NCBI GenBank assembly: GCA_007376395.1
Contig: VMGE01000001.1
Coordinates: 89,635 to 153,634 of the forward strand
DNA: 64,000 nucleotides
Source: Microgenomates group bacterium Gr01-1014_5
Lineage (GTDB): Bacteria; Patescibacteriota; Microgenomatia; UBA8517; UBA10165
Reading direction: 5' to 3'
Below are positions 4,141 to 59,732 of the stretch, one piece after another. Position 1 is the stretch's first letter. Each line of letters starts with the position of its first letter. Under the pieces are notes generated by a model that did not search any database, was not told where the DNA came from, and saw only the letters and a program-made list of their open reading frames with translations. The translations under genes were made by a program, and so were the position numbers.

Positions 4141-4668
4141 ATGGCCATAGGTCCCAGTAAAGAACAAGATTCACTTTTCTATTTTGAATCAGAAGTTAGC
4201 TCAATGCCCTTTTTTTCAGTAAGAAACAGATTTCTTCAAGCCACAGATGACGCGTATCGACGAGCATGTGCGAGGAGATTAGCACAACTAGTAGAAAATG
4301 ATCGCTACGCGCGTTCTTGGCTGGAGGATTTTACTGGCGGCGCAAGAGCACTGGTAACCGATTCTGAAAGTTTGGTGCTATTACTTGCTCCATACAATAC
4401 AAATGCTTCTCGTCAAGAAATTTCCACCCTTTACAGTTTATTCGCGAGTTATACCCGAAAAGTAGATTCAAAAAAATTAATTGCTATTGCTCAAATGGGA
4501 AGTATTTTTTCAAAATGGCAAGATCACCTACTTCCCGCTCAACGTTTTGAGATTGCAGAGAGGCTAGGGAGGATAGTGCTTTTAAACCAAAAAGAGCTCT
4601 TTGATACTCCTGATATTACTGCTTCCATGCGTGAGGCAACAAGGAAGCTTATGGGTGTAGCCTACTAA
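4141..4668 (+). CDS. hypothetical protein (175 aa); one of very few plus-strand genes in the left half
   Basis: ORF only; no motif recognised. Confidence 0.4.
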   Translation: MAIGPSKEQDSLFYFESEVSSMPFFSVRNRFLQATDDAYRRACARRLAQLVENDRYARSWLEDFTGGARALVTDSESLVLLLAPYNTNASRQEISTLYSLFASYTRKVDSKKLIAIAQMGSIFSKWQDHLLPAQRFEIAERLGRIVLLNQKELFDTPDITASMREATRKLMGVAY

Positions 4669-5759: not shown

Positions 5760-5763
5760 TTTT

Positions 5764-5820
5764 ATAATCCGATTGGTTCTATAATCCGATTGGTTCTATA
5801 ATCCGATTGGTTCTATAATA
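5764..5820. repeat. three perfect tandem copies of the 17-bp unit ATAATCCGATTGGTTCT plus a 6-nt partial copy
   Basis: Read directly: copies at 5764-5780, 5781-5797 and 5798-5814, then ATAATA. The array covers the last two codons and stop (TAG, reverse complement of 5813-5815) of the HAD gene. It ends 5 nt before the PGI/PMI ATG (reverse complement of 5757-5759). Confidence 0.9.
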
Positions 5821-9333: not shown

Positions 9334-12300
9334 TCAAGTCTCCATAAGGAGATTGATGCGGTTTTCCAGTTCACGATTCCAGGAAATAGTATAAGGAAGA
9401 CTGATTTTTTTCTCTCCAAAACCATTCTCTACCAAAATTATTATTTGCCTGTCTCCGCCTTTACTTGATTGCAATAGGTGATTAATTTCAACCAGCGACT
9501 TTGGGCTAGTCCCTTTTGGTATGCGTAAATAAACCGTGCCGTCTTCCGTCTCTCTGGGAGAAGGATGTGGTGAGTCTTTGTCAAAGTCTTCGTCGCTTTC
9601 CGTCTTTTCCACGATTATAGACAGCGAGTCTTCCCTCTCGTCAACCTTGCCTTCTACGACAATTGTTCTTCGTTCCATCCACTTGCTTTTTGAACCAGCG
9701 TAAATCGTGGGGAATACTACTAAATCTATTGCTCCTGTATCGTCTTCAAGATTAACAAAGGCCATTTCCCGACCACCATTTTTAGTAATCACACTACGTA
9801 CTGAGTTAATAATTCCACCGATTCTAACCGTTTTACCAACTCCATTTTCGCGAGTAATTTCATTTACTTTATGGGTAACACGATCTTTAATTTTCTCCAA
9901 CATAGAGCTTAATGGGTGGTCTGTCAGGTAAAACCCAAGAAGTTGTTTTTCTAAAGATAACTTTTCGTCTTCTGAAAAATCTGCAACTTCGGGAAAGTTG
10001 TCAACAGGGGCAATGGTCTGGATTTTTTCTTCACCGGCATCAAACAATCCCGATTGTCCGTCGTCCTTCCTTTTTTTCAACGAAACCTTGGTACGAATTT
10101 CGTCTAAAGCAGCCAACATTGCGGTTCGCTTACCAAATCGGTCCATTGCACCAGCCTTAATTAAACTCTCGATAACCTTTTTATTAACTTTTTGTCCGTC
10201 TGTTCTTTGACAAAAATCCGACAACGAAGCAAACACGCCAGTCTCTCGCGAGGACAATATCGCGTCAATGGCGGCCACGCCGACATTTTTAATAGCAGAA
10301 AGGCCAAACCTTATCGCCCTTCCGTCAAGAGAGTTTTCGTCTGCAACGACTTTGAAAATCTCATCACTATCATTAACGTCCGGAGTTAAAATATTGATCT
10401 TAATATGGCGGCATTCGGTTATTGCTTGAGAAATTTTTTCAGTATCCCCAGATTCAGCCGTCATCAGGGCACACATATATTCAACAGGAAAATTAGCCTT
10501 CATGTAAGCAGTCTGGTAGGAAACCATTCCGTACGAAGCCGCGTGTGCTTTATTAAAACCGTATGCTTGGAATGGTTCAAAAAGTAGCCAAAGATTTTCC
10601 GCAAATTCTTGCGTTTGTCCATTATTTACAATTCCCTCCGTAAACTTGGCTTTTTGTGCCGCCATTTCCGCTGGAATTTTTTTACCGACTGCTTTTCTGA
10701 ATTTATCTGCTTCTTCCCAGTTGTATCCGGCAAGTTCCAAGGCGCAAAAAAGCAGATCGTCTTGGTAAACAATTAAACCATAGGACGCCTTTAAAAATTT
10801 CTCCATTCTTGGGTCGAGATATTTAACAAGTTCCGGGTTTTGTTTACGGGCAATATATTCAGGAATCACCGACATTGGACCTGGCCTGAAAAGAGCCACC
10901 ATTGCCATTAAATCTTCAACACTAGACGGTTTTAAGTCTTTAAGATAGCGTGTCATTCCTGATCCGCCTAACTGAAAAACTCCCATTGTGTCTCCTCGCC
11001 CTAACATTTCAAAAGTTTTTTTGTCGTTAAGGGGGATATTGCGGATGTCGACCTCTACTTTGCGTGTTTCCTTCACAATCTGAATTGAGGCTCCTAGAAT
11101 GGTTAAATTGCGGATACCTAAAATATCAAACTTAATAAGGCCAACATCTTCGCAAGCGTGAAATTCGTATTGGGTAATCACTTTCGATCCACCTGTTTCG
11201 AGTTGAAGCGGTGTAAAGTCTGTAAGTTCAGATTGGGCCACAACAACACCTGCGGCGTGTACAGAAACATGTCTTGCACTACCTTCTACTTGATGTGCCA
11301 AATCCAAGATTTTTTTACTATCTGCATCATTATCATACATTTGCTTTAACTCGGGTGATTCTTTAAGAGCCTTGGGGATATCGGTCGGAAAACCTTGTTT
11401 TGGAGGCGGGGTGACTTTGGAAAGCCTGTCGCCAACAGCGTAGGGGTAACCCAAAACGCGTGCAACATCACGGATCGCGGCTCGAGCCAACATTCTTCCG
11501 AAAGTGCAAATTTGCGCAACACGCGTTTGGCCATATTTATCAACAATATAATTAATTACGTCTTCTCTTCTGTCGTCTGCCACATCAAAATCAATATCCG
11601 GAGGACTAGGACGGGAAGGGTTTAAAAACCTTTCGAAAGGAAGGTAGTAAGTCAAGGGATTGACAGTAGTAATTCCCAAGACAAATGACACCAGGGAGCC
11701 TGCGGCAGAGCCTCTAGTGTTTGTGATAATTCCGTGTGTCGCGGCCCATTGGACAAAATCTTGGGCGATGAGGAAATATGGCGCATATCCCTTGGAGATG
11801 ATGATATTAAGTTCATGTTCCATCCTCTCTTTTACTTCTTCTGTTTGTTCTTTAATTTTTTCGGGAAGACGGGTTTTAACTAATTTCCGCAAAACATCGT
11901 CCACAGTCTTTCCCTTGGGAACTTTATATTCAGGAAAAAACCATTTACCCAAGGTACTGATTTCTAGATTACAATCTTCTGCTAAACGTACTGTGTTTTT
12001 AATTGCTTCGGGGATATCGGCAAACAATTCTTCCATTTCCTCTGGCGTTTTAACATAAAAATTTGGATTGTCTACAAAGCGGATTCTTTTTATGTCTGTA
12101 ACATTTTTTCCTGTTGCCACACAAACCAAAACATCTTGAGCCTCAGAATCTTTTTGTTCAATATAATGCGAATCGTTAGTAGCAATTATGGGTATTCCTA
12201 ACTCTCGTGAGATTTTATAAACACCTTCATTAATTACTTTCTCGGTTCGAGCCATTCTTTCCAAATCAGCTTTAATGTCAGAGTTGTCTGCGTTGGCTAC

Positions 12301-21355: not shown

Positions 21356-21973
21356 TTGACAACAAATATTTTTTATCACATACTGCGATTAAGACAAGCC
21401 GTAATGGATCTAAAAGCTACCCTGAAGGCCATTAAAATAAATGAACCGACGCTAAGCACAATTCTCGGCGCATTTGTAATATTGGCAGTTGGAATTCTGG
21501 TTATTAATTACTTCCGCACTCCCGGAAAAACAGGTTCTATCACCCCTCCCGCCCAAACAACGGCAGAAGAAGCTGTTTCCCAAGCAGGAACCAAACATAC
21601 TGTTGCTTCAGGCGAACATCTTTGGAGAATTGCCCAAAAGTATTACAAATCCGGTTACAACTGGGTTGATATTGCCGAGGCTAATAATTTAACAAACCCA
21701 GACCTTTTGACAGTAGGCGCAGAACTCACTATTCCGAGTGTTCCTGGCAAGCAAAACACTGTTAACGCTCCTCCTGGGCAAACTGCTACATCTGGCGAAC
21801 CTATTCAGACCGACACTTATTCAGTAGTGCAAGGTGATGCTCTATGGAGTATTGCCGTGCGAGCCTATGGGGACGGGTATCAATGGCCAAAAATCTGGGA
21901 AGCAAACCGCGCCTCAATTCTCAATCCAAATCTTATTTACCCCGACCAAAATTTAACTCTTCCCCGCCAATAG
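21356..21973 (+). CDS. membrane-anchored protein with two LysM domains
   Basis: TM helix LSTILGAFVILAVGILVINYF followed by two LysM repeats (HTVASGEHLWRIAQKYY...TIP and YSVVQGDALWSIAVRAY...LTLP). The real start is likely the internal Met near 21404. Confidence 0.8.
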   Translation: MTTNIFYHILRLRQAVMDLKATLKAIKINEPTLSTILGAFVILAVGILVINYFRTPGKTGSITPPAQTTAEEAVSQAGTKHTVASGEHLWRIAQKYYKSGYNWVDIAEANNLTNPDLLTVGAELTIPSVPGKQNTVNAPPGQTATSGEPIQTDTYSVVQGDALWSIAVRAYGDGYQWPKIWEANRASILNPNLIYPDQNLTLPRQ

Positions 21974-21974
21974 C

Positions 21975-22103
21975 TTATCCCCCTTCGCGAAACACCGAGC
22001 GTTAGCTCGCGTATCAGAGCGAAGTCTCGTTCGCTTCGGAGGGATTCCGCTCCCTACGAAGCGTGGGGAGAAGATACCCCGACCGTTAGGTCGCGGGAGC
22101 TTC
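21975..22103. repeat. structured repeat family R1, copy 1 (~129 nt)
   Basis: Near-identical to 56894..57058. Several short hairpins with GTTA loops (cgagc-gtta-gctcg; cgacc-gtta-ggtcg) and AGCGAA...TTCGCT. Lies between the LysM stop and the pyrB stop. Confidence 0.7.
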
Positions 22104-22104
22104 A

Positions 22105-23049
22105 TTACCCGAGAAGCATTTTGAGTAAAGCCATGCGGGTATAGAGCCCGTTTTTGACTTGTTCAAAAATAACAACTCTTGGGTCGTTGGTAAATTTTTC
22201 GGGCAGCTCGCCAAAATCATCGCTTCGCGGCAAAGGATGCATAATAATACTGTCTTTAGGCAGTTTAGCCAATACTTCTTCGTCAATCGCAACCCTTGCA
22301 TGATTATTGTTTGTTGTTTTTCCTTCCATTCTTTCTTTTTGCGCCCGGGTCAAGTAAACAATGTCTATTTCTCCTGCGCAAGCTAAAATGTCCGCGTGCT
22401 GTCGGAAAACAACATTGTGCCGCCTCAGGTAATCGAGAATATCGGGTTTTATCTGAAAATCGTCCGAGGCTACAAGGTCTATAGTTATCCCTTCAAACTT
22501 CCCTAAAAGATAGGCTAGTGAATGCACGGTTCTACCGTTCCTCAAATCACCAACAAGTGCGACACGAAGTCCATCGATTTTCTCGAAATGGCGGCTAATA
22601 GTGTACAAATCAAGCAATGCCTGGGTCGGATGCTGACCAGTGCCGTCCCCCGCGTTTATTATTGGAATAGCGGAAACCGATGCGGCTTCAGTGGCTCCAC
22701 CCACTTCGTGATACCGCAAAACAACGGCGTCATAACCCAAAGCATTAACAACCCGTATTGTGTCTTTTATGCTTTCACCTTTTATTGCGCTGGAAAATTC
22801 TTTTGCATTTTCTGTCGAAGAAAACGTGGCCCCTAATTTAGTAGTCGCTTGCTCAAAGGAGATTCTTGTTCTTGTGCTCGGTTCGTAAAATAAAATACAA
22901 ACCGAACGTCCTGCCAAAAGACCATTACCTCTTGCCTCCACGACTTTTACCATGGATCTAGTTTCTGAAAAAAATTCTTCCACTAGCCAGCCCCGGCTAA
23001 ACTGCTGGGCTTCTAAAATGTGTCGTAAGCCTAGTTCTTTTGACATCAA
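22105..23049 (-). CDS. pyrB: aspartate carbamoyltransferase catalytic subunit
   Basis: STRTR carbamoyl-phosphate motif and HPLPR (ATCase type; OTCase has HCLP); 314 aa. Confidence 0.75.
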   Translation of the reverse strand: MMSKELGLRHILEAQQFSRGWLVEEFFSETRSMVKVVEARGNGLLAGRSVCILFYEPSTRTRISFEQATTKLGATFSSTENAKEFSSAIKGESIKDTIRVVNALGYDAVVLRYHEVGGATEAASVSAIPIINAGDGTGQHPTQALLDLYTISRHFEKIDGLRVALVGDLRNGRTVHSLAYLLGKFEGITIDLVASDDFQIKPDILDYLRRHNVVFRQHADILACAGEIDIVYLTRAQKERMEGKTTNNNHARVAIDEEVLAKLPKDSIIMHPLPRSDDFGELPEKFTNDPRVVIFEQVKNGLYTRMALLKMLLG

Positions 23050-34594: not shown

Positions 34595-34710
34595 CTCGTT
34601 GTTTAAACCCTCGATATAAACTTACATTATTATTTCACGACTGTCAAGACATTAGTAAGATATATACACATATAGTTTGATATATTCCAGGAAGCTTTTT
34701 AAGAGACTAT

Positions 34711-34796
34711 GAACCTGTTTGAAACAGGTTCTCTCAACTCACCTTACACAAGTTAGCGAAGCTAACGCGCGAGTTATGAAACGAGTTTTATTTTGG
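34711..34796. repeat. structured repeat family R2, copy A (~86 nt) between rplU and rpmA
   Basis: GAACCTGTTT-g-AAACAGGTTC hairpin, then AACTCAC...GTTAGC-GAA-GCTAAC...GCGAGTT nested stems, then a U-rich tail in the plus sense. About 88% identical to 54652..54738. Overlaps the last 7 codons of rplU. Confidence 0.7.
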
Positions 34797-35088
34797 TTAT
34801 CTTAATTTTAGTTTGAGAAGCGCGGAAGCCGCGGACTTTTCGGTAACGTGATTTTGCTTTGTATTTCAAAACTCTGATTTTCTCGCCTTTTAAGTTTTCT
34901 AAGACTTCAGCTTCAACTTTTGCTCCCGAGACCTCAGGGGAACCAACTTCTGCTTTATCGCCATCAACAACCAAAAGAACTTTGTCAAAAACGGTTTTTC
35001 CGTCTGCCTCGAGGCGGTCTACAATCAGCTCTTGTCCTTCTTCAATTTTATACTGCTTACCTGCAATATCAACAACAGCGTATTTCAT
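34774..35088 (-). CDS. rplU: 50S ribosomal protein L21
   Basis: MKYAVVDIAGKQYKIEEGQELIVDRL...; 104 aa. Confidence 0.95.
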   Translation of the reverse strand: MKYAVVDIAGKQYKIEEGQELIVDRLEADGKTVFDKVLLVVDGDKAEVGSPEVSGAKVEAEVLENLKGEKIRVLKYKAKSRYRKVRGFRASQTKIKITKIKLVS

Positions 35089-54528: not shown

Positions 54529-54651
54529 GGTGTTATCTTATCATATTTTCTTTCCGAGTGATTATTGAAAATAAACTAGTGCTTCGTGACTACGCGCGCC
54601 AAAGCTGCGCTTTAGCGCTGCGGGCGGGAAACTTCGGGTTAAAGAAGGTTA

Positions 54652-54738
54652 TAAACTTGTTTCAAAACAAGTTTTCACAACTCACATTACACAAGTTAGC
54701 GAAGCTAGCGCGTGAGTTATAAAACAAGTTTTATTTTG
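54652..54738. repeat. structured repeat family R2, copy B (~87 nt)
   Basis: AAACTTGTT-tcaa-AACAAGTTT hairpin with compensatory C>T changes relative to copy A, plus AACTCAC...GTTAGC-GAA-GCTAGC...GTGAGTT and a U-rich tail. Overlaps the stop codon of 54731..55549 in a different frame from copy A and rplU. Confidence 0.7.
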
Positions 54739-55549
54739 TGGCAATAAATACATCTAATATTGAAGTTTTTCCGCCCTCAAGCACAGTCCAGTCACCCGCC
54801 TGATTATTATAGACAAGTGCCGCCCCTTCCATGTTTACTGTTCCCTTAAATGTTTTTGCTACTACTGTCTTGGTAAATACACCATAAGGACCCCCTGTAA
54901 CCTCGCCAGGTGCCGTATCAGGCAAGCCAAACGTCCCCATTGTCAGATAATAACCCTTGGGCATGTTTCCGGAAAGTGTAAATTTCCCGTCTGCTGAAGT
55001 AATCTTAGTCGGATTTTGCTGCAAGTTAAATCCTGTTTCGAATTTATACACCAATTTTCCTTTAGTGTCCCTAAAACGAATGGTAAAAGTTCCCTGCTCG
55101 ACCCCTTCGTCATAGCGGCATTTGCCTGAAGAACAAGTACCCAAAAGAAGATCCCTTTCAACACTTGTTTTACCTGCAATATCCTTAACATTTCCCGGAA
55201 CTCCCTGTGTTATCCCTGAATCAACGGTATAAACCAACTCATACTCCATTGTTGCGGCATCCTTAGGCAATTTACTGACCACTAAATGCAGTTCGCGTCC
55301 GTCAATGCGGGGAGTTAGCGAAGCGTAGGGCTTTTGACTTACAGGAAGTTCTTTTAGTGTTTCTTCTTTTCCTTTAGTTTCGTTTGTTTGAGTAGGAGTT
55401 TTACTTTGACCTTTCAAAAACCAAAAGACACCAGTTAATATTCCAAGACCAACTAAAACAACAATTGTAATGGGCAGAACTCTGTTCATTGTATCTTTGT
55501 GATTATATCGGCTATATTTTATTTTGGAGCCAATCCGAAAGTTTGTCAA
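54731..55549 (-). CDS. hypothetical membrane-anchored extracytoplasmic protein (272 aa)
   Basis: N-terminal TM LPITIVVLVGLGILTGVFWF. The start is probably the internal Met (MNRVL...). Confidence 0.45.
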   Translation of the reverse strand: MTNFRIGSKIKYSRYNHKDTMNRVLPITIVVLVGLGILTGVFWFLKGQSKTPTQTNETKGKEETLKELPVSQKPYASLTPRIDGRELHLVVSKLPKDAATMEYELVYTVDSGITQGVPGNVKDIAGKTSVERDLLLGTCSSGKCRYDEGVEQGTFTIRFRDTKGKLVYKFETGFNLQQNPTKITSADGKFTLSGNMPKGYYLTMGTFGLPDTAPGEVTGGPYGVFTKTVVAKTFKGTVNMEGAALVYNNQAGDWTVLEGGKTSILDVFIATK

Positions 55550-56819: not shown

Positions 56820-56893
56820 ATTTTATTTTTGAGAATTCTTAACCTCTGTCCGCTTTTCTTTCCGTGTTTGCCACAGACATATTATACCCTACT

Positions 56894-57058
56894 TTATCCC
56901 CCTTCGAGAAACATCGAGAGCGTTAGCTCGTGCCTCTGAGCGAAGTGTTATTCGCTTCGGTCGTACGTCGCCAAAGGCTATGCCGACGGCGCGAGGGATT
57001 CTGCCTCCCTACGAAGTGTGGGGAGAAAATACCCTGACCGTCAGGTCACGGGAGCTTC
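56894..57058. repeat. structured repeat family R1, copy 2 (~165 nt) with a 33-nt internal hairpin insertion (56961..56993)
   Basis: Aligns with 21975..22103. Compensatory stem changes (cgaccgttaggtcg vs tgaccgtcaggtca), loop-only variation (agcgaagtctcgttcgct vs agcgaagtgttattcgct), and the extra hairpin CGTCG-ccaaaggctatgc-CGACG. Overlaps the last 4 codons of recO and lies upstream of the glyQS promoter. Confidence 0.7.
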
Positions 57059-57627
57059 GTTCCATTGGAAACAAACTCGTTAATTTGCGCAAGAAACTTA
57101 TTGGTTCTCAACTTTCCATCGATCAAATGCTCAATGTATGCGTCCAGATTTCCAGGTATCGGGCGACCTCGTTCTATAAAGCCAAGTTCTTCCAATATCC
57201 GTACTTTGAACGTTTGAACAAAAGGGTGAATTGCCCAATAATCTAGTTTACCGAGTCTTTCCAAGGCTTCGACTAACTCTTCAAACACTTCCCGGTTTTC
57301 CTGTTTTTCGGCAGTTAACCGGTTCACTATTTCTACTAAGTGGTACGCTATTGCAACCTTTGTTAAATCCTCCCGCCACGTATTAAAACTATTTTTTATC
57401 TCAACTTCCGTTACAATATCCATATTTCTCCCATAAGCTGCAAAAAAACGTACATAAGAAAAAAGCTCTAAAGCTCCTTTTTTGCGGGAAGTTGTTTTTC
57501 TAATTCCCTTGGCAATAACCCGTACCTTGCCGTAATGTTTGGTAAATATTGTTAAAAAACGATCTGCCTCTCCCTGGTTACGGCGTGCAAGAATTACTCC
57601 TTCGGTAGAATACGATCGATTTTTCAC
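57046..57627 (-). CDS. recO: DNA repair protein RecO (short form)
   Basis: N-terminal OB fold EGVILARRNQGEADRFLTIFTKHYGKVRVIAKGIRK; 193 aa. Confidence 0.7.
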   Translation of the reverse strand: MKNRSYSTEGVILARRNQGEADRFLTIFTKHYGKVRVIAKGIRKTTSRKKGALELFSYVRFFAAYGRNMDIVTEVEIKNSFNTWREDLTKVAIAYHLVEIVNRLTAEKQENREVFEELVEALERLGKLDYWAIHPFVQTFKVRILEELGFIERGRPIPGNLDAYIEHLIDGKLRTNKFLAQINEFVSNGTKLP

Positions 57628-57650: not shown

Positions 57651-59732
57651 TTAGTGGCGAATTTCGCGGTCGGACTTGAGATAAAATTCTTCACTTGTGC
57701 CATCTATATCAACGTTGTAAAGATGGCCGTCTGTTCCTGGTTGTTTTTGAATTAGTAATTTGTATCCATCTTTGCTTTTAACCGGAGTTGTGTATTTAAA
57801 AGTTAACTCAATAACTCCCAAGGGCCGCAATGTAAAGAATCCTTCAAAATAAGTTTTTCCCAGCTCCTCTTTGGTCTCAATTGGAACTTCAGAACCGGTT
57901 GAATCAACCAACTTTGATCCTTTGGGTACATAGACTCGCACCCAATCACGGTATGGTCCGTTAAGCCACCCGTCGTGTTTTTGCGGGTTTTTATATTTAA
58001 CTCTTAAAGTATTTGTCGTGCCGTCACGATTAGTATCTATACTTAGAGTAACTTCCTCCTGAACATAAAGGTTTGACTTAGCGCCAGCAAAATTAGTGTC
58101 GTTAATATGTAAATAATCTCCGTCAAATTCTTCAACTCGCCCTGCAAGATTAAACGACTCCATGGCGGATTGAACCTCTCCGTCACCAAAATAGAAAAGT
58201 ACGTGTTTTTCCGTTAAAGCATTAAAACCCGCTTGAAACAGCTCAGGAATTTTTTCCTTTGGCTGACCCAAGGCATTAGCAATCAATGAATTCATCAAAG
58301 GGCCCAAGATTGCTTTTCTGTTATCTGAGTTCTTGGGTTTTAAGATGATCTTTCCACCTAAATCATCAGCCCAAATAATAGGACCTTCAACATCAGCAAA
58401 CGACTCTAGCTCGTAGATGACTACGGGGCAGTTACAGCGAGGATCCTCATCTGAAGAAAAATTACCAAACCCAGGAACGCCAATTCTGCCGATAACCTTC
58501 AAGATGTCAACGGCTAATTTAGTGTCAATTGCGATAATACCGTCAACCTTTGGAGATTTTGTTTTGTCGTAATTCTCGCGGAAAGTATCCATAGAAACCT
58601 TAAAATCAGGAGAAATGTTCATATCGCGAAGATTCCAGTATGGTACTAAAGGAAGGTATTTTTTAATCCCTCCTGGAGCAGGAATTTTACTTTTCAGCTT
58701 GTTGTCCAGGTTGTAAATATCATTTGAGGCAACCGGATCAAATTTACCGTTCTTAACTTTTACAATAGAATATCCGGTGATAAAGCCGCCTGTTGGGCGA
58801 AGTTCTTTGTCGTTTTGGAAAATCATTAAATATGTCCTCTCTCCTTTAGTTCCGAGAAGATAAGGGGCTTGCGCAAGAACAGGTTTACCGTCTGTAATTA
58901 AATTATGAGCTTGCTGAACCAGTTGAATTCCGCGTTTTATAGGTTCACGGACGGGCTTTCCTTTTAGTGTTTCAGGGTAGCGTTTTGGATCAATTTTGGC
59001 AAAATGTTCATTCATTATTGCCGTCTTTTGGCTGACTTTATCAAGTTGAGGTATAACCCCTTCTATGGATTCGACTATAAAATTAATTCTGTCTTCGGCA
59101 GTCTTTGCGCCATCCTCTGATTGCTTACCTTTGTTAAAACCTAATATATCTGAATAGGGCTCAATTGCTTTCAACAAAACTTCTCCAGCCTCGACACCTG
59201 CAATTGCGCCTTCTGCGGCATTGTTTGCGTCAGACCAGTAACCACCCAAAAACGGAATAGGTTTCACCCAAATCAAAGGAAGCAGGCTTCTGTCAAAACC
59301 CGTAAGATCTGTCTTTAATTTAGCGAGAGAAACGTTTATTTTATCCAAGTCTTGTGAATCTGCTGCCGCCTTAAGTTCCAAGCCTGAAGCCTGAAGATTT
59401 TTCGCCGAATTAACAATTGCAAATAATGGAACGCCTATCGCCAGAGCCAGAATAGCCAACACCACCAAAACTCCCCCGCCCGCAAATCCTAATTTCTTTC
59501 CCCTAATTTTAGGAAACGAGAAATTGAACCGGCCTGGTGGTTTTTGTTCAGGAAACGCTTGAAACCCTGCATCGCGCGCTTCGGGCGTTACAACGTTAGT
59601 TGGTACTACAACCTTAGTTGGTACTATTTGGTTGAGATTATTTTCTTTTGGCGTTAAGTCTTTCATAACTTTAGTTGGTACTATAACGTTAGTTGGCACT
59701 AAACAGCACCTCTTCCAGAAATCATCGCCCAA
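57651..59732 (-). CDS. large membrane-anchored extracytoplasmic protein, possibly DUF4012 family
   Basis: TM LGFAGGGVLVVLAILALAIGVPLFAIV then a roughly 600-aa ectodomain, next to a polyprenyl-phosphate sugar transferase. The N-terminal VPTNV/VPTKV repeats are encoded by DNA repeats, so the true start is probably an internal Met. Confidence 0.4.
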   Translation of the reverse strand: MGDDFWKRCCLVPTNVIVPTKVMKDLTPKENNLNQIVPTKVVVPTNVVTPEARDAGFQAFPEQKPPGRFNFSFPKIRGKKLGFAGGGVLVVLAILALAIGVPLFAIVNSAKNLQASGLELKAAADSQDLDKINVSLAKLKTDLTGFDRSLLPLIWVKPIPFLGGYWSDANNAAEGAIAGVEAGEVLLKAIEPYSDILGFNKGKQSEDGAKTAEDRINFIVESIEGVIPQLDKVSQKTAIMNEHFAKIDPKRYPETLKGKPVREPIKRGIQLVQQAHNLITDGKPVLAQAPYLLGTKGERTYLMIFQNDKELRPTGGFITGYSIVKVKNGKFDPVASNDIYNLDNKLKSKIPAPGGIKKYLPLVPYWNLRDMNISPDFKVSMDTFRENYDKTKSPKVDGIIAIDTKLAVDILKVIGRIGVPGFGNFSSDEDPRCNCPVVIYELESFADVEGPIIWADDLGGKIILKPKNSDNRKAILGPLMNSLIANALGQPKEKIPELFQAGFNALTEKHVLFYFGDGEVQSAMESFNLAGRVEEFDGDYLHINDTNFAGAKSNLYVQEEVTLSIDTNRDGTTNTLRVKYKNPQKHDGWLNGPYRDWVRVYVPKGSKLVDSTGSEVPIETKEELGKTYFEGFFTLRPLGVIELTFKYTTPVKSKDGYKLLIQKQPGTDGHLYNVDIDGTSEEFYLKSDREIRH

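Follow-up and report, generated by a model that had tools for sequence, protein, structure and literature searches.

The repeat family R1 was analysed in a 64,000-nt stretch of the metagenome-assembled genome (MAG) of Microgenomates group bacterium Gr01-1014_5 (the window), in which an initial annotation had described two structured copies. The best reading of R1 is a non-autonomous mobile DNA element (canonical length 129 nt; 55–60% guanine plus cytosine, GC) of groundwater Microgenomates (Candidate Phyla Radiation, CPR) with genomes of 38–42% GC. It is very probably a mobile insertion element with consequences like those of the Rickettsia palindromic elements (RPEs); of the roles proposed in the annotation, that of a miniature mobile element spreading between sites is the one supported, with the addition that R1 also lands inside genes. 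Landing sites are of three kinds: intergenic spacers (copy 1 of the window), the final codons of genes (copy 2 in recO; locus L008) and the middle of genes. Within CPR, R1 constitutes a new family of small mobile elements that inserts into genes in the manner of RPEs and has ends like those of palindrome-associated transposable elements (PATEs).

Window copies and the empty recO site

Both copies, annotated as about 85% identical, were recovered at the expected places by pairwise alignment, nhmmer and a covariance model; repeat finding, nhmmer and the covariance model (130–155 bits) gave exactly two copies in the window, for which the chance expectation of the 24-nt core pattern was 0.00. Mean column identity of copy 1 and copy 2 was 82% with flanks and gaps included and ca. 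85–89% within aligned blocks; GC content: 57–59% (copies), 41% (window). The core of copy 1, CCCCC...GCTTCAT, lies at 21979..22105 of the plus strand (127 nt; 59% GC against 41% for the genome; 155 bits), and that of copy 2 at 56898..57060 of the plus strand (163 nt; 130 bits; right end mutated to TCGT). The annotated starts were retained and the right ends were moved, the element finishing at ...TTCAT (22105 and 57060) and not at ...CTTC; for copy 2, comparison with a relative (L027) showed that the insertion continues to 57084.

The gene names pyrB and recO had been assigned correctly, and the recO stop codon lies within the element as described, the pyrB stop codon (22105–22107) abutting it. 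Both copies are 3' of minus-strand genes; copy 1 is equally the 3' flank of a plus-strand gene, since it fills the entire spacer between the stop codons of a LysM-domain gene (21971–21973) and of pyrB, the two genes being convergent. pyrB (aspartate carbamoyltransferase; 22105..23046, minus strand) ends at the right edge of copy 1, and the final T of the right-end motif TCAT (22102..22105, plus strand) is the first base of its minus-strand stop codon. recO (57046..57627, minus strand), downstream of which lies a glycine-tRNA ligase gene, takes its final codons (TKLP and stop) from copy 2; its present stop, TGA on the minus strand, is provided by the loop of the right hairpin (TGACC GTCA GGTCA; 57035..57048, plus strand).

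RecO homologues end in ...KFLSQIK*, ..AQINTK* or similar, and none of them in the ...NEFVSNGTKLP* of the window. In the relative L027, the RecO of which is 87% identical, recO is without the element, and the sequence can be aligned to either side of copy 2. Its end reads CAAAT|AAAGTAG CTTATAAT (CAA ATA AAG TAG; empty site TTTAT|TTG on the other strand); at the same site the window reads CAAAT, followed by TAACGAGTTTGTTTCCAATGGA with the element and then by AAAGTAG GGTATAAT; immediately past the element the window has ATAAAGTAG GGTATAAT where L027 continues with CTTATAAT. Copy 2 is thereby shown to be an insertion into the final codons of recO. The native end ATA AAG TAG (I K stop) persists beyond copy 2 at 56889–56897 on the minus strand; the TTAT at 56894..56897 (plus strand) belongs to it, and the left junction falls exactly after this TTAT, as in all other copies.

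Relative to L027 the insertion amounts to 187 nt (56898–57084), including 24 extra bases past the mutated TCGT end (TCCATTGGAAACAAACTCGTTAAT; 57061..57084, plus strand; ending in ..TTAAT) that are absent from L027 and encode the recO residues ..INEFVSNG on the minus strand. It is plausible that they are flanking DNA of an earlier site, carried along after the TCAT end had been lost. A native recO end of the form '..NGIK*' was considered and rejected, homologues ending earlier and the L027 DNA giving IK-stop as native with the 24 further bases inserted. L027 also carries, at 10637–11101, an extra open reading frame (ORF) of 154 aa between recO and the glycine-tRNA ligase gene; it has no Pfam match and is missing from the window.

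Copies inside genes and their dispersal

Further copies were sought by translating the element, concatenating the translations and searching a protein database; the successive searches gave 12, then 5, then 10 clusters, the last two consisting mostly of short ORFs called across copies. At least about 25 loci were obtained overall, from groundwater Microgenomates metagenomes. The annotation had named, as outcomes that would speak against its proposal, that only the two copies exist and covariation is not significant, or that all relatives lack the element; many more copies were found, and covariation exceeded that of the controls (see below). Eleven distinct copies (those of the window and those from fetched DNA of other loci) were aligned; their GC content is 54–60%, in host genomes of 38–42%.

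At eight loci the element lies in frame within an intact conserved gene (glucose-6-phosphate dehydrogenase, G6PD; glutamate dehydrogenase, GDH; YchF; FemAB; a DHH phosphoesterase; a PMT-family glycosyltransferase; an AAT-family protein; and a histidine kinase); the 12 proteins of the first search also included Wzy-like proteins, and in most the element peptide was found in the middle of the protein. The copies are read in three frames and in both orientations (YPPSRNTESV..., FIPLRET..., LSPFAKH..., MKLPRPDG...), with frame-shifting indels between them; conservation therefore concerns the nucleic acid and not the peptide. Pfam domains flank the insert on both sides in the host proteins, and alignment with sequences of the Protein Data Bank (PDB) gave a clean insert of ca. 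44–46 residues; in YchF it is located where homologues have a helix and a strand.

For excision in silico TTAT was retained and the element deleted from its first C through ...CAT. GDH then reads ...KFITNEELL (...NGLKFITNEELLALDVDILVP), to be compared with ..ERITNEELL (...GERITNEELLELDVDILVP) of Thermotoga maritima (1b3b); G6PD reads ...MDNPINFSAKQIR / ...LVTMDNPINFSAKQIR, with the usual spacing past the AMDxP motif, as in the Escherichia coli enzyme; FemAB gives ...LLKAVYQGTT and PMT ...KLYWNGSQFVDHPPLGFW. Deletion of 131 nt from L006 fuses two pieces into one cupredoxin-like ORF of 179 aa, and this copy is an out-of-frame, gene-splitting insertion. In L008 the copy stands in the final codons of a gene and supplies a new C-terminus and stop.

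The mid-gene copies contained no stops and had excised lengths divisible by three (126 nt, 168 nt and, in six copies, 129 nt); copies outside this constraint measured 127, 131 (L006 and L008) and 187 nt. The canonical 129-nt unit has three to four of its six frames open, against 1.2 expected from shuffles; with a length divisible by three, mid-gene copies may thus be read through as inserts of 42–56 residues, SLRRDSAPYEAWGEDIPTVR being an example of the peptide expected in that case. A small peptide gene on the minus strand (ATG AAG CTC...) was rejected: copy 2 has ACG in place of the start and an in-frame TGA, and its frame is shifted by indels.

The source MAG holds three more copies (P0002, P0004 and P0009), P0004 being on the same 333,335-bp contig as the window; the element-bearing DHH phosphoesterase gene is on that contig. 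Element-bearing MAGs comprise that of the source (ENA ERZ27284378, contigs k139_495695 and k139_75408), GCA_964357865.1 and GCA_041643075.1, among others. Four contigs, each with a full-length copy, came from a scan of Joint Genome Institute (JGI) metagenomes: the context is the same in L004 and L007, and in L006 and L008 identical copies of 135 nt stand in contexts unrelated to each other, which resembles recent transposition. When species-representative genomes were scanned with a 20-base core pattern, the one match, in Prevotella (L001), was due to chance, the set evidently being without the source MAG; viral contigs scanned with an invariant 17-mer gave no match; and nhmmer and the covariance model, run over all fetched loci, gave no additional or degenerate copies.

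Some contigs showed irregularities at the element. An isolated exact core match of 21–25 nt (CTCCCTACGAAGCGTGGGGAG) in an AT-rich contig (L005 1409–1433), with the rest of the element missing, is a fragment or a chance match. Two metagenome contigs end inside the element, and the G6PD gene of L007 breaks off at the element and is joined to unrelated DNA, while L020 and L021 carry the full gene (L003 4156–4185; L004 9793–9925; L007 1880–2012 compared with L020 9777–9909). Either the repeat breaks or chimerises assemblies, or it mediates rearrangement. In the same pair of near-identical contigs CTP synthase is present as two ORFs (352 and 194 aa; L020 7268–8914) or as one ORF of 548 aa (L021 7086–8732), possibly through a frameshift or a sequencing error.

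CPR genomes are tiny and gene-dense, and an element that can land only in or next to genes therefore shapes proteins directly; its effects comprise a rewritten C-terminus (recO), inserts of 42–56 residues in core enzymes, split genes and broken metagenome assemblies. In annotation, segments of the element are liable to be taken for unusual insertions in proteins or for small hypothetical ORFs.

Ends, fold and a possible route of mobilisation

The left junction reads TTAT|CCCCC at 13 of 13 independent sites, and excision with TTAT kept restores the sequence of the host protein; the TTAT beside copy 1 (21975..21978, plus strand) is either a conserved target motif or the final bases of the element. 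The right end is ...GCTTCAT| in 10 of 12 cases, the exceptions being TTAT (L022) and TCGT (copy 2). Bases preceding TTAT have a weak AAGT bias; right flanks are without a common sequence. No flanking repeat was seen in the variable flanks of the copies, apart from a possible AT that is indistinguishable from the element ends, and an inverted-repeat search (seed 6, minimum 8 nt) found none at the termini, only a central palindrome.

Single-sequence folds gave z values of −3.4 to −4.7 against shuffles, except for the minus strand of copy 2 (z = −2.1). RNAalifold of the 11 copies gave a long-range helix (UCCCCCUUCG with CGAAG..GGGGA) around three hairpins, and a 3' domain with the right hairpin. 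In copy 1 (plus strand) the left subterminal hairpin (helix 3 of the consensus; stem GAGC/GCTC, loop GTTA) lies at 21995..22011, the invariant centre, composed of the hairpin AGCGAA..TTCGCT and a 13-nt palindrome CGCTTCGGAGGGA/TCCCTACGAAGCG, at 22017..22063, and the right subterminal hairpin CGACC GTTA GGTCG (helix 7) at 22078..22096; the palindrome is an equally possible alternative pairing.

In the consensus 95.6% of cells are paired and seven pairs are altered on both sides; none of 500 shuffles reached this, and slid controls gave one or two such pairs. The compensatory change first noted between the two window copies (CGACC..GGTCG and TGACC..GGTCA) is real, five of the seven pairs of that hairpin having changed on both sides among the 11 copies; right hairpin variants: CGACC/GGTCG, TGACC/GGTCA, CAAGC/GCTTG and CGGCC/GGCCG; left hairpin: GAGC/GCTC versus GGGC/GCCC (L009). 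Covariation is confined to these two subterminal hairpins; the other helices are invariant and thus neither supported nor contradicted. Differences had been placed mainly in loops, which is broadly right: the variable columns are loops, linkers and the two covarying hairpins. The extra 33 nt in the centre of copy 2 (56960..56992, plus strand) were found again in pairwise and multiple alignment; their description as a self-contained hairpin drew little support, the fold being no better than that of shuffles (z = −0.37). In L026 the left loop carries a 39-nt extension (z = −2.9).

One-sided changes comprise 15 G:T and 5 A:C in the TTATCCCCC-to-TCAT orientation, and under RNA parameters 8 of the 11 copies, under DNA parameters all 11, fold better in the orientation of the window plus strand; the plus strand, antisense to pyrB and recO, is the favoured folding strand. 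Its hairpin loops are of the form GNNA, which is stable in both RNA and DNA. The annotation took covariation as the mark of selection at the RNA level; the covariation is there, its specificity for RNA is not, since single-stranded DNA hairpins recognised by a transposase give an equal signal. The covariation shows selection for hairpins on the window plus strand, and action as RNA need not be implied.

The absence of terminal inverted repeats, the end hairpins on the same strand, the TTAT 5' flank and the TCAT right end suggest mobilisation in trans, as single-stranded DNA, by a Y1 transposase of the IS200/IS605 type, as for PATEs. The hairpins would be the structures bound by the transposase, TTAT would be the target motif and TCAT the right cleavage motif; in copy 2 the mutation of TCAT to TCGT may have led to the use of the next similar site, with 24 flanking bases carried along. 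Taken alone, this mechanism is possible and is put forward tentatively. Guide tetranucleotides (GAAA, AGAA) pairing with TTAT and TCAT by analogy with IS608 were also considered; no claim is made for them, the variants L022 and copy 2 not co-varying cleanly. The clean TTAT/TCAT junctions and the covarying hairpins make the mechanism experimentally approachable.

Several observations weigh against a mobile element moved in this way. No transposase of any kind could be connected with the element: a tblastn search of ca. 375 kb of element-bearing DNA, for which two Y1 TnpA sequences served as queries, gave no match, and the gene tables of the fetched loci hold no Y1_Tnp or TnpB Pfam domain. The junctions are explained equally well with a 2-bp AT duplication (AT|CCCCC...CTTC|AT) and without one. 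Relative to GC skew the orientation is inconsistent (9 of 12 positive, both window copies opposite) and confounded by gene strand. Copy density is low, with no second copy within 10 kb of any fetched copy. Since the mid-gene copies were found through proteins, their being in frame and free of stops is in part a product of the search. Conservation is higher in the interior than in the hairpins, unlike the prediction of a pure transposase-end model; this conservation hints at an additional sequence-specific function.

Alternative explanations and related systems

One alternative is a reading of R1 as a PATE with an omega RNA scaffold as its core, used in trans by TnpB or IscB; the flank right of TCAT would then serve as guide, and TTAT would be the adjacent motif. 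Omega RNAs, acted on in trans, are often encoded by PATEs (PMC10055086), and the interior of R1 is conserved beyond the needs of the ends; the fold is better on the plus strand, and reading along that strand would lead out through the right end. The size of R1 falls in the range of trimmed omega RNA scaffolds. Against this stand the lack of a TnpB or IscB gene in any fetched locus, of a match in Rfam, including the HEARO and IS605-orfB motifs, and of promoter evidence, and the reading is very unlikely. More broadly, it is very unlikely that the plus-strand fold is an RNA machine, either a tiny intron-like or ribosome-bypassed element or a free-standing guide-RNA scaffold by which a nuclease would be brought in, in trans, to defend the insertion sites. 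Among the RNA roles for which the conserved interior leaves room, the intron-like element is less likely than the omega-RNA-like scaffold.

An insert that is selfish at the RNA level, its plus-strand RNA being excised from mRNA or skipped in it (self-spliced, host-spliced or bypassed by the ribosome) so that the protein is made without the insert, would agree with an invariant sequence-specific core surrounded by covarying peripheral hairpins and with hairpin extensions of variable length (copy 2, L026), such as structured RNAs have; changes compatible with G:U speak for the plus strand, the sense strand of most intragenic copies, exact removal rejoins the split ORF of L006, and the YchF insert occupies the position of a helix and a strand in homologues. 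However, both orientations occur in genes, with G6PD and L006 antisense to the strand favoured for folding; the eight mid-gene copies all have lengths divisible by three and no stops, while the four unconstrained copies have 127, 131, 131 and 187 nt (a comparison biased by ascertainment); no ribozyme or intron family was matched at E = 10; and 129 nt is far below the size of group I and group II introns, the ends being unlike known splice sites. This reading is accordingly very improbable; if true, it would make R1 an intervening sequence of a new class in the protein genes of bacteria and account for the tolerance of minimal CPR genomes to insertions in G6PD, GDH, YchF and similar genes.

A conserved 3'-untranslated region (3'-UTR) or terminator module had also been proposed in the annotation. 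In its wider form, a host regulatory module (3'-UTR, terminator, mRNA-stabilising structure or gene for a small RNA) retained where pyrB and recO end, it draws on the strong fold, on the position of both window copies after minus-strand genes and on a minus-strand hairpin of copy 2 followed by GGGTATTTTC, which was flagged as terminator-like. It conflicts with the occurrence of the same sequence within coding regions in both orientations, with the recO of L027, which is without the element, with the antisense position of the better-folding strand relative to pyrB and recO, and with the place of copy 1 between convergent genes, where it flanks the LysM gene equally. The canonical copies are without a T-run, and the consensus has no hairpin followed by one; in the intrinsic terminator scan copy 1 was unflagged, and the marginal minus-strand match was seen only in the variant copy 2. 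In the Rfam comparison proposed by the annotation neither window copy matched at the gathering threshold or at E ≤ 10 (terminators, small RNAs, ribozymes, introns, HEARO, IS605-orfB). The module is thus highly improbable as an explanation of the family, and individual copies may have been co-opted secondarily as regulatory elements. A mobile protein module, spreading because its encoded peptide of ca. 43 residues is useful, would account for the in-frame position in many proteins and for the over-representation of open frames (three to four of six, 1.2 expected), but its probability is almost nil, since three frames and both strands give unrelated peptides (YPPSRNTESV.., FIPLRET.., MKLPRPDG..), indels shift the frame between copies and intergenic copies have stops in those frames.

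The mobile-element reading of R1 was compared with four known systems. RPE-1 to RPE-10 are units of ca. 100–150 bp that form stable hairpins, carry no gene and have no known transposase; they occur between genes and, unusually often, in frame in unrelated housekeeping genes (PMC10969869). R1 is likewise a small hairpin unit, in frame in eight conserved host genes with the ORFs intact; it is likened to RPEs by behaviour, as an analogy with no sequence relationship implied. The hosts of RPEs are obligate intracellular alphaproteobacteria, those of R1 Microgenomates (CPR) free in groundwater; R1 is GC-rich in AT-rich genomes and has a defined TTAT...TCAT junction; and each RPE family is described as encoding a conserved peptide, whereas R1 uses three frames and both orientations. 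For the Rickettsia elements the insert was reportedly demonstrated in mRNA by reverse transcription PCR. R1 is an independent example, from a distant phylum, of "selfish DNA inside protein-coding genes" of the Rickettsia type.

The ends of IS200/IS605 elements and of the gene-less PATEs have subterminal hairpins, insertion at a fixed site and no terminal inverted repeats (PMC3597680, PMC10055086). R1 is similar in having no terminal inverted repeats and no coding capacity, in its same-strand subterminal hairpins near both ends, and in its position 3' of a fixed tetranucleotide (TTAT) with a related right motif (TCAT). The corresponding motifs of IS608 are TTAC (left) and TCAA (right), and the linkers are similar in scale, the hairpins of R1 being ca. 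16–18 nt from the TTAT junction on the left and ca. 9–12 nt from the end on the right. R1 differs from PATEs in that no cognate TnpA was found in the ca. 375 kb, an AT duplication is possible and no replication-strand bias is shown; its interior is strongly conserved, which is not required for mobilisation of PATEs.

Classical MITEs (miniature transposable elements with inverted repeats; Correia/NEMIS, ERIC, RUP and the QMITEs of Coxiella) can fuse to or interrupt ORFs and supply new C-termini (PMC10969869, PMC5896051). R1 is also small, non-coding, structured and present in several copies, with a presence/absence difference (the empty site of L027), but MITEs are defined by terminal inverted repeats and by the target-site duplication of the parent insertion sequence, and R1 has no terminal repeats and no clear duplication. 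The REP/BIME repeats with RAYT (TnpA-REP) form hairpins outside genes and are believed to owe their mobility to a Y1 HUH enzyme (PMC8266576); they are extragenic palindromes of ca. 20–40 nt in high copy number, whereas R1, a 129-nt composite of several hairpins, has a low copy number and is often intragenic. The searchable literature yielded no report of MITE-like elements in CPR (Patescibacteria).

Four further features were recorded. A second, unrelated repeat family of ca. 107 nt has two copies in the window (34702–34808 and 54644–54751, both plus strand; ca. 89% identical over a 74-nt core), with a hairpin AACCTGTTT..AAACAGGTT and a mini-hairpin GTTAGC-GAA-GCTAAC; the copy at 54644–54751 is just past the stop codon of a minus-strand gene (54731–55549), and none turned up in the fetched loci. 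At 5760–5819 of the window three tandem copies of a 17-nt unit (TTCTATAATCCGATTGG) are 96–100% identical. A direct repeat at 59592–59701 (AACGTTAGTTGGTACTA-like units) lies within the 5' end of a minus-strand ORF of 693 aa and encodes repeated VPTKV/VPTNV. Outside the window, at 4258–7749 of L017/L018, a TraG-like P-loop protein of 1163 aa with intein and LAGLIDADG domains adjoins the element-bearing GDH gene; this intein is another selfish insertion in these genomes.

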